Source: Oscillospiraceae bacterium (lineage in GTDB: Bacteria > Bacillota > Clostridia > Oscillospirales > Oscillospiraceae). Taken from it: a stretch of 49,048 nucleotides of DNA. Positions 5,806 through 26,816 of this stretch are shown here, piece by piece (the first letter of the stretch is position 1; the number at the start of each line of letters is the position of its first letter). The stretch is taken from assembly GCA_031290515.1 (NCBI GenBank), contig JAITNK010000098.1, positions 1-49,048 on the forward strand. Direction: 5' to 3'. The notes under the pieces are model-generated. The model was given only the letters and a program-made list of their open reading frames with translations, was not told the DNA's origin and did no database searches. A program made the translations under genes and the position numbers.

Positions 5806-6842
5806 TGCTGTTCCTGTATGAACTCAAAAAGCTGCTCTTAACGCCCGCGATTGCGGCGTTTCTCATAATATGCGCCGTCGTAAACACGTTTATCGTGGTT
5901 TCGTCATACGTCTGGCAGTACGAGCCGGCGAACCTCGCGGAGCAAGCCGACGTTTTCGACGGCTTCGACGCGCGGGAAATCGCCGAGCGGTACATCGGGG
6001 AGTACTCGCTTTCAGGCGGAAGCGAGGCGAATATCCGCGAAAAGTACGCGAAGCTGCAACCGGTAATCGACGCAAAAGCCGCGCGGGACGACAGTATGTC
6101 CGAATACTTCGGCGTCAACACGCGCACGCTCCACACGCTGCTGTTTAAGCAGCTGTTCGGCGCAATCGCGGCGGAGTCGTGCGTCGCCGCGCTGTTCTTC
6201 GCGCTGCTCGGAACCGGCTACGAACAGACGCGCAACACCGAGAGCATCGTCTGCGCGTCGCGAACCGGACGGCGGATTCTGCTGCCGAAGCTGCTCGCCG
6301 CGCTTATCGCGTCGGCTGTGTTTCTCGCCGCGCTTACCGCAGTTACGCTCGCGGTCGCGTTCGCCAAATTCGGCTACGCGTCGGTACTCGGCGACAACGT
6401 GTCGAGCTTGTACAACACCGCGGTGCAGGGCAATACCAACAACGGCATTAAGCCGCTGATTACGCTCCGGAGCTTCACCGTCGGCGGGCTTATCGCGGCG
6501 AGTCTCGGGCTGACGCTCGCGCTCGCCTGGTGCTTCGCGCTGTTCGGCTTCGCGGTCGGCGCGGCGATTCGCGGAGGATACGGCGCGACGCTCGCGTCGA
6601 TTGCCGTACTCGCGGCGAGCGTCGTCGCCGCGCCGCTGTTCGCCGTCGGAAGCGAAGCGCGGTACGCGTTCGCGTCGATTCCGCCGGGGCTGATTCTCGG
6701 CGCGGGAACCTGGTTCACGGACGGCGGCGCGATGATAACCCATCTGCGTTTTGAGACGACCGGGACGGCTCTGTCGCTCGCGGTACTCGCCGCGCTGTCG
6801 CTCGCCGCCGCGGCATATTACAAAAGGAGAGACCTGAAATGA
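5805..6842 (+). CDS. ABC-2-type permease-like membrane protein (paralog 2, shorter)
   Basis: TAATG stop/start overlap. Same N-terminal motif (MLFLYELKKLLL). One TM helix, a loop of about 100 aa, then a multi-TM C-terminus. Confidence 0.65.
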   Translation: MLFLYELKKLLLTPAIAAFLIICAVVNTFIVVSSYVWQYEPANLAEQADVFDGFDAREIAERYIGEYSLSGGSEANIREKYAKLQPVIDAKAARDDSMSEYFGVNTRTLHTLLFKQLFGAIAAESCVAALFFALLGTGYEQTRNTESIVCASRTGRRILLPKLLAALIASAVFLAALTAVTLAVAFAKFGYASVLGDNVSSLYNTAVQGNTNNGIKPLITLRSFTVGGLIAASLGLTLALAWCFALFGFAVGAAIRGGYGATLASIAVLAASVVAAPLFAVGSEARYAFASIPPGLILGAGTWFTDGGAMITHLRFETTGTALSLAVLAALSLAAAAYYKRRDLK

Positions 6843-8753: not shown

Positions 8754-8809
8754 TTTCAACATATTTCGCAAAACCCCTTGACACGCCCCCCCCCGTCATA
8801 TGTTATTAT
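8754..8809 (+). promoter_or_regulatory. Promoter module A: conserved upstream block, TTGACA, C9 tract, TGtTATTAT (20-nt spacer)
   Basis: TTGACA 8778-8783, CG + C9 (8786-8794) + GTCATATGT, extended -10 TGT-TATTAT 8801-8809. The 24 nt upstream of -35 match the second copy at 26229-26252 (minus) at 20 of 24 positions. Confidence 0.5.
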
Positions 8810-8838
8810 GATATATCAAATATTTGGAGGAATCAGCA

Positions 8839-24949: not shown

Positions 24950-24955
24950 AAACGG

Positions 24956-24989
24956 CATTCCCCCGCGGACTTCGGTCCGCGGGGGAATG
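24956..24989. terminator. Bidirectional terminator (perfect 15-bp stem)
   Basis: CATTCCCCCGCGGAC-TTCG-GTCCGCGGGGGAATG, flanked by A5 upstream and TTT downstream. Lies between the convergent stops at 24949 and 25006. Confidence 0.8.
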
Positions 24990-25005
24990 TTTGGTCGTAC
25001 GACTG

Positions 25006-25695
25006 TTATTGACTGTATCCGCTTTTGAATCTATCAAGCATTGCCTTGGCAAGAGTACTGTCTGCGGTGTTGGTTTTGACATTAACAGCATTTTCCAAAA
25101 TCTGAAGCGACTGTTGATTTGTCAGGTAACGGAACAAACCCGACCTCCAACTATCTGCGGTACTGTTTGAGGTTTGATAGAAGTCCCAATAATTGAAATT
25201 CTGCTTTTCATCGATACTGAACTTGAGTCTGTTTTCAGAACTGCTTGCGACGTATCCCTCGCTATTTCTGTCACCAACAGAACAGTCGTCGATAAGAAAA
25301 AGCGCAAAAACTTTACGGTCTTTCTCGGCTGCATACCGCTCGAGAGTCGTCAGAACGCATAAGCCGCCGACCTTTGCACCTTTGATTCTGCGCTTACTAT
25401 CGTTCTCAATATCTATCCCCGCGCGCATTCTCCAGTCAACGAGCAATGTGCTTTCGTAACACAAAAATTTTTCTTGTGAAAGTTGTTCATATTCGATTTC
25501 ACGTTTGATATAACGAGAGCAGGCACTTTCCGAACACCACCGGCGTTTGGCTGTATAAATATTGTAATGGATGTTATCATTTGAGCAGACGCCGTTGAAT
25601 CCGAATTCACCGTTCCCGCGTCCGCCGTCGCAAAAGTTGCACTTGAATGCAATGCCGCCGCGGCTGCGGTTTGCATTATTGTTTGAAATTACCAT
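25006..25695 (-). CDS. 229-aa cytoplasmic Cys-rich orphan protein (no family recognised)
   Basis: AAGGAGG lies 7 nt before ATG 25695. N-terminal cysteines form C-x2-C ... C ... C-x4-C (FKCNFCDGG...VCSND...WCSESAC). Sits in low-G+C DNA. Confidence 0.7.
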   Translation of the reverse strand: MVISNNNANRSRGGIAFKCNFCDGGRGNGEFGFNGVCSNDNIHYNIYTAKRRWCSESACSRYIKREIEYEQLSQEKFLCYESTLLVDWRMRAGIDIENDSKRRIKGAKVGGLCVLTTLERYAAEKDRKVFALFLIDDCSVGDRNSEGYVASSSENRLKFSIDEKQNFNYWDFYQTSNSTADSWRSGLFRYLTNQQSLQILENAVNVKTNTADSTLAKAMLDRFKSGYSQ

Positions 25696-25726
25696 TGTTG
25701 TTCCTCCTTATATATTTGCCGCGCGG

Positions 25727-26143
25727 TTAGAAAAACTCGACCGAACCTGTATAAGTAAATGTATCGCCCTTATAACCGGTGACTTGTATCGCCACTCCGA
25801 AATACTGTCTTACCGTTGCGCCAAAGCTGTTTTGAGAATCGACATATCCGAGGACAAGCCATTCGTCTGTTGTGATTTCAGTAACTTCCCATCCGCCGAA
25901 TTTGGCTGTAGAAGGACTCGTCAATCGTTTCTCTATCTCAGATTTCGCTGTGCCTACCGCGGTGTATTTATCGAACTTTTGACTGCTCGGGCTGCTCGGG
26001 CTGCTCGGGCTGCTCGAACTGCTTTGGTTATTCACCTCAGCAACATACCACACCATAGTCACAACAAAAAGGACAAAAAGGACAATTATAAGGCTGACAC
26101 AGCAACCGTAGAGTCCGCTTTTTTTTGGCGTGTTTTCGTTCAC
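25727..26143 (-). CDS. 138-aa N-terminally anchored membrane protein with a Ser/Pro linker and a small extracytoplasmic domain
   Basis: GTG start 7 nt after AAGGGGG. TM helix LYGCCVSLIIVLFVLFVVTMVWYV, an SSSSSPSSPSSPSS linker, and a C-terminal domain of about 80 aa. Confidence 0.7.
   Translation of the reverse strand: MNENTPKKSGLYGCCVSLIIVLFVLFVVTMVWYVAEVNNQSSSSSPSSPSSPSSQKFDKYTAVGTAKSEIEKRLTSPSTAKFGGWEVTEITTDEWLVLGYVDSQNSFGATVRQYFGVAIQVTGYKGDTFTYTGSVEFF
25983..26021. repeat. 9-bp tandem repeat (CTGCTCGGG x3, plus a degenerate fourth unit) encoding the (SSP)n linker
   Basis: Direct reading: CTGCTCGGG CTGCTCGGG CTGCTCGGG CTGCTCGAA CTGC. Confidence 0.85.
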
Positions 26144-26196
26144 TGCATTTCCCCCTTGATTTTGTACGTAACTGCGCCGCCGCTGTACGCGAAGCT

Positions 26197-26252
26197 ATTA
26201 TACCACAAATAGGGGGGGGGGCTGTCAAGCGGTTCTGTGAAATTTGTTGAAA
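26197..26252 (-). promoter_or_regulatory. Promoter module B: conserved upstream block, TTGACA, C10 tract, TGgTATAAT (20-nt spacer)
   Basis: Minus strand reads TTTCAACAAATTTCACAGAACCGC-TTGACA-G-C10-TATTTGTGG-TATAAT. The G10 run on the plus strand is at 26212-26221. Confidence 0.5.
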
Positions 26253-26263
26253 ATATCTGTATA

Positions 26264-26320
26264 ACAAAAGCCGCGCCTTTCGGCGCGGCTGATAAACAAA
26301 CGCAGACCCTCGCGGTCTGC
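26264..26320 (-). terminator. Tandem terminator hairpins after the PNPOx-family gene
   Basis: Minus strand: GCAGACC-GCGAG-GGTCTGC followed by GTTTGTTT, then AGCCGCGCC-GAAA-GGCGCGGCT followed by TTTTGTT. Confidence 0.65.
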
Positions 26321-26339
26321 GCCTGCGGTTTCGCAATCT

Positions 26340-26816
26340 CTATTTCATAAGCCGCTTGCCGGTGAACTCCGATGCGGTCAGCCGCAGCACCGCCGTGAGC
26401 GCAAGCGATTTCTCGTTGTAGGCGTAATCTTCGCCGACCGCGCCGTAGTGCCGCATAATGCAGTCGAGTCCGAGCCGCCGCTCCTCCGGGTCGTCAATCG
26501 GCTCGATGAAGCCGGAGCCGACTATGCTCTCGTAATTCATCGAGTATTTGCAAGGCTCGTCGCGCCGAATCAGTTCAACCGAGCAGTCCGCCTCGAAACC
26601 GGCGGCGCAGCCCGGACCGATCAGCGCGATTTTGCGCCCTTCGCGCGCGCCGTGGAAGTACAGCGTCAGCGCGCCGTTTTCGTACGAGTGTCCGAAACTC
26701 ATCGGCACGATGTACGGCGCGCCGCCGGTGCCGAGCGCGACGCGGCACACTTCGCACCGCGCGAGAACGCCGAGTATGTCTTGAATTTGCGTGATTTCCC
26801 GGTTCGCCTGCCGCAT
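26340..26816 (-). CDS. Pyridoxamine 5'-phosphate oxidase-like FMN-binding split-barrel protein (NimA-like family)
   Basis: AAAGGAG RBS before ATG 26816. MRQANREITQIQDILGVLARCEVCRVALGTGGAPYIVPMSF...LYFHGAREGRK. The rest of track ORF 26340-27815 is antisense overlap with guaA. Confidence 0.8.
   Translation of the reverse strand: MRQANREITQIQDILGVLARCEVCRVALGTGGAPYIVPMSFGHSYENGALTLYFHGAREGRKIALIGPGCAAGFEADCSVELIRRDEPCKYSMNYESIVGSGFIEPIDDPEERRLGLDCIMRHYGAVGEDYAYNEKSLALTAVLRLTASEFTGKRLMK

Follow-up and report, generated by a model that had tools for sequence, protein, structure and literature searches.

A segment of about 1.2 kb with unusually low G+C content lies between housekeeping genes in the genome of an uncultured gut Clostridia of the Oscillospiraceae family (assembly GCA_031290515.1, labelled G000 here; 1.955 Mb, 164 contigs, 60.4% G+C). 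The stretch of DNA that was analyzed, referred to as the window, consists of positions 1 to 49,048 of contig JAITNK010000098.1. The segment, or islet, spans positions 24990-26260 of the window and codes for a 138-amino acid and a 229-amino acid protein. This locus raises the question of where the two genes came from and what their products could do in this host. The analyses described below support well that the islet was acquired horizontally, and lead us to favor, with moderate confidence, the idea that the 229-amino acid protein is a PUA-like protein that bears zinc and senses modified bases, the stand-alone core of a defense-associated family.

Results and Discussion

Composition, borders, and origin of the islet

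The G+C content of the islet is 44-47% versus a genome mean of 60.5%. Each 300-nt window over positions 24950-26299 has 45-47% G+C, and the flanks have 55-69%. When the whole genome was divided in 1-kb windows (mean 60.5%, standard deviation 3.5%), values of 46% or lower were found in only 0.2% of them. The same bias is present in the coding sequences: the two genes have 44.3% and 46.3% G+C, and the G+C content at their third codon positions (GC3) is 48-49%, compared to 78-81% in the neighboring ABC exporter, PNPOx and guaA genes. A preliminary description of the window, made from the sequence alone, had pointed to a low-G+C segment between terminators. The G+C and codon usage values and the presence of hairpins at both sides confirm that observation. 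The features of the locus are collected in Table 1. The hairpin at the left border has an A-run at one side and a T-run at the other, and can therefore act as terminator for both the plus-strand ABC exporter gene and the minus-strand islet operon. The islet genes are two intact open reading frames (ORFs), both on the minus strand, with the start codons and strong ribosome-binding sites that had been described. They are separated by 31 nt and the terminator scan called no terminator in between, from which we infer that they are co-transcribed. The ORF list and the repeat, tRNA and Rfam searches showed no relevant integrase, tRNA, Rfam match, or flanking direct or inverted repeat at the islet, in agreement with the earlier failure to find an integrase or direct repeats, and the islet DNA shares no similarity with phage records.

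Neither of the two genes was found by profile search in the genomes of 11 congener species (63-94% complete), and blastn of the islet DNA against 40 relatives produced no match. The family of the 229-amino acid protein is patchy in the order, where it was found in eight of 301 genomes, none of them from the family to which G000 belongs, and the 90%-identity cluster of this protein in a collection of 15 billion proteins consists of this contig alone. Elsewhere, homologues of both genes are located in islands that bear an integrase or a resolvase, or in phages. The surroundings of the islet were also compared. The ABC exporter pair is kept in two relatives (G002 and G008), but the genes that follow are others (an oxidoreductase and a GGDEF protein). 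The guaA gene and its upstream neighbor are conserved in seven relatives, and the DNA downstream of guaA is unrelated to that of the window. The composition of the PNPOx-like gene, the one downstream of guaA in the window, is that of the host. Congeners have counterparts of this gene, but with 35-42% identity only and at other places; an exact-sequence look-up returned no record from the same species, and a single metagenome scan returned relatives at about 41% identity only. The islet sits in a synteny breakpoint that takes in everything between guaA and the ABC exporter. Inspection of this junction in relatives was thus informative only in part: the islet genes were not found, but, as synteny is broken at both sides, there is no empty site to compare. 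Although the insertion event is documented by neither an empty site, an integrase nor repeats at the islet, the horizontal acquisition proposed in the preliminary description is well supported by composition and distribution.

The 229-amino acid protein and its predicted structure

The 229-amino acid protein, described before as cytoplasmic and Cys-rich, has no match in Pfam, NCBIfam (E ≤ 1) or PADLOC, and its matches in PHROG are at chance level. The residues that are invariant across all architectures of its family (K18, D23-G24-G25, C37, C54, C59, C79, E81, S82, W88, T116, E124, R127, W170, G186-L187 and R189) are all retained in the window protein. In the confident AlphaFold2 model (pLDDT 89.4, pTM 0.87), a beta-barrel is followed by two C-terminal helices, and an inserted helical region of about 70 residues with the four invariant cysteines separates the first strand of the barrel from the others. 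The four-cysteine cluster probably binds zinc, and W88, W170, R127, R189 and E81 are candidates to form a base-binding pocket. The best Foldseek matches of the model in the PDB were the N-terminal domain of Thermococcus gammatolerans McrB (6p0f), the ASCH structures 3iuw and 5gus, the EVE structure 1zce, and a Lon N-domain. In BFVD, they included an EVE-domain protein (prob 0.82), DUF3850 and ASCH proteins. The structure searches advanced unevenly on the assignment to families, which could not be made by eye: the 138-amino acid protein was identified as NTF2-like, and the 229-amino acid protein produced only weak matches, the best of them of the PUA class. The EVE model PF01878 had no match at E ≤ 1e-10 in 151 Clostridia genomes.

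A large family with defense-associated relatives

A word-indexed search identified 41 homologues of the 229-amino acid protein, all unnamed and mostly from Clostridia, with 29-48% identity. A search with the family profile extended this number to 798 cluster representatives at E ≤ 1e-3 (395 at E ≤ 1e-30), and a pattern scan of species genomes found 167 confirmed loci, nearly all in Bacillota. This family of about 800 clusters is unnamed in Pfam, NCBIfam and PADLOC. It is amenable to testing because several cultured strains carry it: Oscillibacter valericigenes Sjm18-20, several Acetobacterium species, Hathewaya proteolytica, and Anaerotignum species.

Most members have 330-360 amino acids and include an extra N-terminal domain of about 50 residues. 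Its profile has matches in the PDB to UvrD/PcrA, at the Tudor domain of their C-terminus (7egt_B, E 1.4e-4; also 7egs, 6yi2 and 5dma), and individual members have weak Pfam matches to PcrA_UvrD_tudor and CarD_TRCF_RID. The Tudor domain at the C-terminus of UvrD and PcrA tethers these proteins to RNA polymerase. Longer relatives have further domains joined to the core: an HNH_2 nuclease at the C-terminus in four proteins (P0254, P0257, P0258 and P0269), a SAD_SRA domain at the N-terminus in one, and a superfamily 2 (SF2) helicase in one. In two members (P0040 and P0042), the C-terminal end is a PD-(D/E)xK-like tail. The bare core is the form found in the window protein and in about one fifth of the top 150 profile matches.

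The genes adjacent to family members were counted over 80 genome loci. A PLD-helicase-DUF3427 protein of the SauUSI type (PADLOC mREase_IV, E 2.8e-242) adjoins the family gene in 10 of them, the ZacB/ZacC proteins of the Azaca system in six, some of which have stop and start codons that overlap, a WYL regulator in nine, and an ADP-ribosylglycohydrolase in four. In two loci, short-form homologues (P0004 and P0012) are located 31-51 nt after hsdR of a type I restriction-modification (R-M) system. At one locus, the gene follows NERD, radical-SAM and HATPase_c_3 genes inside a mobile element. Other loci are integrase or insertion sequence (IS) islands, or consist of the gene alone amid housekeeping genes, in one case within the dcw cluster. 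These results give partial support to the defense function suggested in the preliminary description. The fusions to HNH_2, SRA and SF2 helicase domains and the type I R-M, SauUSI-like and Azaca neighbors speak for it in the case of the 229-amino acid protein family, but neither of the two islet proteins has a PADLOC match.

Several observations on this family stand apart. The possibility that its members are the ZacA component of Azaca was ruled out: a PADLOC search of five long-form members produced no match, and DUF6361 is absent from all Pfam scans. A gene string consisting of a ZacB-like PLD nuclease, a ZacC helicase, a long-form homologue whose start overlaps the ZacC stop, an ADP-ribosylglycohydrolase and a WYL regulator was found in four loci (L065, MT835621.1, 13659-24343; L119; L124; L128). 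In MT835621.1 it extends into an ImpB-type polymerase, a GIY-YIG nuclease and YjbR. This string may be an extended Azaca variant. A protein of about 585 amino acids with cysteine clusters of its own and no Pfam or PADLOC match adjoins the family gene, in either order, in about nine of the 80 loci (L106:3343-5097; relatives in L075, L080, L105, L126, L133 and L138). It is absent from the window and is a possible dedicated partner of the family. Lastly, genes from Priestia plasmids labelled "malate synthase" (L056, NZ_CP085443.1, 1774-2628; WP_252285441.1, 284 amino acids) resemble the C-terminal half of the family core only, with 22-23% identity. The label is probably wrong and the matches uninformative with respect to the family.

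A proposed stand-alone sensor, or possibly an enzyme

The explanation that we favor is that the islet would be a non-essential insert acquired horizontally, with about 1.14 kb of coding DNA of foreign origin in two unrelated genes from families that move independently. Both would be transcribed as one unit from a promoter of host type, described below, as far as the hairpin that also serves the ABC exporter gene. The core of the 229-amino acid protein, a PUA-like barrel with an inserted four-cysteine cluster that probably holds zinc, would recognize a modified or unusual base in DNA, possibly RNA, as EVE, ASCH, SRA and YTH domains do. In its relatives, the core would supply target discrimination to the fused HNH or PD-(D/E)xK-like nuclease or to an adjacent nuclease-helicase defense system. 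The window protein has the core only and its gene is surrounded by those for a surface protein, PNPOx and an ABC exporter, with no nuclease; therefore, it is not itself a restriction enzyme. Most likely it acts alone, blocking or marking modified foreign DNA, or is the stranded remnant of a defense island.

A number of results weigh against this explanation. The Foldseek matches to PUA-class structures are weak (best E 0.03, TM 0.2-0.35), the sequence models for EVE, ASCH, SRA and YTH match neither the 229-amino acid protein nor the core of any member of the family alignment (A1), and a PDB profile search with the family core returned chance-level matches only. About two thirds of the family neighborhoods have no defense gene. 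A search of G000 found no type I R-M system, ZacC or true SauUSI-like enzyme, and with these usual partner systems absent there is no effector at hand. A promoter with a 20-nt spacer, as is the one preceding the islet genes, would normally be predicted to be weak. Finally, conservation of the K, D, E and R residues is strong, and what they mark could be an active site rather than a reading pocket.

This last point is the basis of a first alternative, which we consider unlikely: the core would be an enzyme (a glycosylase, or an ASCH-like nuclease or hydrolase) whose substrate is a modified nucleoside or nucleic acid, with K18, D23, E81, E124, R127 and R189 forming the active site. The invariant charged residues are kept in every architecture and ASCH-type structures are among the fold matches, both of which are in keeping with an enzyme. 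Some ASCH proteins are catalytic: Escherichia coli YqfB is an N4-acetylcytidine amidohydrolase and the Zymomonas mobilis ASCH protein is a ribonuclease, which adds to the case. However, that the core is found fused to HNH_2, itself a nuclease, and to SRA, itself a reader, is more typical of a sensor module, and no known catalytic motif could be aligned to the core.

A genome-specific class of poly-C promoters

The preliminary description attributed to the islet a promoter of its own. The promoter in question (Table 1) has a spacer composed of G-C10-TATTTGTGG, i.e., G followed by C10 and 9 nt. A consensus promoter scan, which considers spacers of 16-18 nt, does not call it because its spacer has 20 nt. 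The genome includes 36 G/C homopolymers of at least 8 nt, about 19 of which are located between CTTGAC(A/G) and a TATAAT-like hexamer. The general form of these elements is CTTGAC(A/G)-N0-3-C9-14-N5-9-TATAAT, and two copies are present in the window. Being one of about 19 copies of a class specific to G000, the islet promoter is a feature of the host and not part of the cargo, and the original attribution is not supported. A strict version of the pattern has 14 matches in G000 and none in the 40 relatives, a set that includes the 11 congeners, and the congener orthologue of one of the genes driven by these promoters has unrelated upstream DNA. The first gene behind poly-C promoters usually codes for a lipoprotein, a transmembrane protein, or a leucine-rich repeat (LRR) surface protein, a clientele that the 138-amino acid surface protein fits. 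While ordinary TTGAC[AG]-N-TATAAT pairs in G000 peak at a spacer of 17 nt (49 of 79), promoters with a run of at least eight C residues peak at 20 nt (9 of 13), despite the C-run ranging from 9 to 14. Such a tight mode is hard to reconcile with free slippage.

The properties of the promoter bear on a second alternative, that the islet is inert baggage, a decaying piece of a former defense or prophage region poorly expressed from a promoter with an over-long spacer. The departure from the 17-nt optimum of ordinary G000 promoters, the loss of mobility genes, and the absence from G000 of all usual partner systems of the family are what decay would leave behind. Nevertheless, the ORFs are intact, the ribosome-binding sites are strong, every family-invariant residue is in place, and the sharply conserved 20-nt spacing suggests that the promoters form a functional class. 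We regard inert baggage as an improbable description of the islet.

The modified-base sensor reading can be carried further. The cysteine cluster and PUA-like core could represent a new class of sensors of modified or damaged bases, the commonest form of which would be tethered to RNA polymerase through the UvrD/PcrA-type Tudor domain, detect foreign modified DNA in a transcription-coupled manner, and pass it to SauUSI-like, Azaca or type I R-M systems. The window would then hold a stripped-down, stand-alone copy under lineage-specific poly-C promoters whose fixed 20-nt spacing would imply an unknown factor or DNA structure. This extended version is speculative and has a rather low probability.

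Other observations were made on poly-C promoters and C/G runs. A second two-gene unit of low G+C content (42-43%) with the same layout as the islet is located behind a poly-C promoter on another contig (G000:C70:166-1520). It codes for a 160-amino acid lipoprotein followed by a 244-amino acid protein with a transmembrane anchor. A subfamily of the promoters, on contigs C29, C84, C114, C129, C147 and C159, has a common 5' leader, TCGTGATATAATG-AAAAACTTTAGACTAAAcGGAGG, that continues into the ribosome-binding site, which suggests a duplicated promoter-leader cassette or a shared post-transcriptional element. In addition, C/G runs of 17-33 nt were found in extremely G+C-rich, low-complexity DNA, some of them at contig ends (G000:C25:4382-4512, C98:1-21 and 6702-6763, C43:7-15). 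Errors of assembly could account for these very long runs, or else they may form a repeat region of an unusual kind.

The 138-amino acid protein

The first gene of the islet codes for a protein with a short basic N-terminus, one transmembrane helix (residues 12-40), a Ser/Pro linker and an ectodomain with the signature L-x-SPSTAKF ... VDSQNSFGATVR. Only about 10 residues are cytoplasmic. The AlphaFold2 model has a pLDDT of 82.9 overall and higher than 90 in the C-terminal domain, where a helix (residues 59-73) packs on a four-stranded sheet as in the NTF2-like/cystatin-like fold. Foldseek matched the model to the NTF2-like structure 3f14 (prob 1.00, E 0.013), the VirB8-like 4o3v, and the NTF2-like domains of G3BP and PBP2a, all with modest E-values. 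At the sequence level, the protein matches phrog_13160 (E 6.7e-16) and has 113 weak homologues, many with an N-terminal zinc ribbon. The motif LKSPSTAxF / VDSQNSFGATxR is prominent in the family alignment (A3), but its invariance is inflated because the search requires shared exact 5-residue words, and it was therefore not taken as evidence of a catalytic site. The A8 run close to the start of the gene (Table 1) is a possible frameshift-prone tract. One homologue, the 119-amino acid phiCT453B_44, belongs to Clostridium phage phiCT453B, where its gene is inserted with the tail-chaperone gene on one side and the tape-measure gene on the other, and the two homologue contexts examined are integrase or resolvase islands. 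The small NTF2-like domain of the protein would be exposed outside the membrane, and relatives of the protein are common as extra genes of phages and integrative elements.

The preliminary description proposed that the islet genes form a two-component module, and their shared strand, 31-nt gap without a terminator, strong ribosome-binding sites and low G+C content agree with a functional pair (defense, immunity or toxin-type) of one membrane and one cytoplasmic component; this is very unlikely, since each family travels alone elsewhere (a homologue of the 138-amino acid protein was found in 0 of 97 loci of the other family, 17 plus the 80 described above, and the reverse in 0 of 2 contexts), the cytoplasmic part of the membrane protein is minimal, and PADLOC recognizes neither protein. 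We read the shared operon as a chance juxtaposition of two accessory genes.

No paralogue of the 138-amino acid protein was found in G000. Kinship with the low-G+C lipoprotein of contig C70 was considered and discarded when the motif resemblance was not significant by BLASTP. In one of the islands mentioned (L055:5001-6496), which has both an integrase and a resolvase, the homologue lies 78 nt upstream of a gene for a 352-amino acid TIR_2-domain protein.

Table 1. Features of the islet and its surroundings (positions in the window)
Feature	Position	Strand	Description and source
Left border, perfect 15-bp hairpin with 4-nt loop	24956..24989		Minus strand: stem then CCGTTTTTAC; plus strand: A-run before, TTTGG after
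Gene for the 229-amino acid cytoplasmic protein, core-only family member	25006..25695	-	ORF
Shine-Dalgarno of the 229-amino acid protein gene	25703..25709	-	AAGGAGG, 7 nt before the ATG; sequence reading
Gene for the 138-amino acid protein	25727..26143	-	GTG start, Shine-Dalgarno AAGGGGGA; ORF
In-frame 9-bp tandem repeat, 4 units (last two degenerate)	25983..26027	-	Encodes the SSP linker of the 138-amino acid protein; repeat search, family D1
A8 run in the 138-amino acid protein gene	26119..26126	-	Coding strand, codons 5-8; sequence
Islet poly-C promoter	26197..26228	-	TTGACA (26228-26223), 20-nt spacer with C10 (26212-26221), TGgTATAAT; TATAAT 26202-26197
A/T-rich upstream module	26229..26262	-	ATATTTTCAACAAATTTCACAGAACCGC; nearly unchanged at other G000 poly-C promoters; blastn matches on four other contigs
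Right border, pair of terminator hairpins in tandem that belong to the upstream PNPOx gene	26269..26322	-	26290-26269 called by the terminator scan; second at ~26304-26322, GCAGACCGCGAGGGTCTGC + GTTTGTTT, read directly from the sequence
PNPOx-like gene	26340..26810	-	
Second poly-C promoter of the window	8777..8810	+	

Significance

The islet itself is an ordinary small import, but its 229-amino acid protein gene leads to a large unannotated family. The domains fused to this family (HNH, SRA, helicase and UvrD-type Tudor) and its neighbors (type I R-M, SauUSI-like, Azaca and WYL) are those of an anti-phage modification sensor. The logic of EVE or ASCH proteins beside R-M systems and of sensor-nuclease fusions is already known, and the family fits it with a core that is not recognized by any library. 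Once its ligand is defined, the family would add a reader domain to those available for detecting DNA modifications, and could also reveal how Azaca-type and SauUSI-type systems choose their targets. With respect to the approximately 19 fixed-spacer poly-C promoters, they would mean either that this commensal Firmicute has an unusually large set of switchable surface genes or that the architecture of these promoters is new.

Comparison with known systems

The closest precedent is a stand-alone EVE or ASCH protein beside a type I R-M system, a pattern that has been described (Bell, Wolf and Koonin 2020, PMC7641849). Like those proteins, the 229-amino acid protein is small and cytoplasmic, has a predicted PUA-like barrel and no effector domain, and would discriminate modified DNA; P0004 and P0012, encoded after hsdR, reproduce the gene arrangement. 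It differs in the helical insert with the four invariant cysteines, in the lack of a match to EVE or ASCH models, in the N-terminal UvrD-type Tudor domain of most of its relatives, and in that G000 has no type I R-M system.

In modification-dependent restriction enzymes, the standard architecture combines a PUA or DUF3427 sensor with an HNH or PD-(D/E)xK nuclease (PMC6765204). The relatives with an HNH_2 domain or a PD-(D/E)xK-like tail, and the 10 loci with a SauUSI-type neighbor, are reminiscent of VcaM4I (EVE-HNH) and of the PLD-helicase-DUF3427 enzymes (PMC6765204, PMC7897488), although the window protein has neither a nuclease domain nor a nuclease neighbor. The YTH/EVE-like N-terminal domain of T. 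gammatolerans McrB, the best structural match in the PDB, is a weak one (E 0.036, TM 0.28-0.35, 10% identity), and the islet has no AAA+ motor or McrC partner.

In the Azaca system (ZacABC), all three Zac proteins were reported to be needed for the cleavage of DNA from phage T4, and ZacA was described as DUF6361 (bioRxiv 10.1101/2025.07.10.664194). The resemblance here is that the family gene abuts or overlaps ZacB/ZacC in six loci; the differences are that the family is not ZacA and that G000 has no ZacC.

Promoters that undergo phase variation through homopolymeric tracts include Neisseria porA (poly-G) and opc (poly-C) and Bordetella fim (poly-C). The C10 run between the -35 and -10 hexamers upstream of the surface protein gene of the islet is similar to them, but there are about 19 such promoters in G000 and none in the 40 relatives, and their spacers cluster at 20 nt. 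Finally, no prophage surrounds the 138-amino acid protein gene, but its product, small and membrane-anchored, has its counterparts among the phage 'moron' accessory proteins and matches both phrog_13160 and phiCT453B_44.

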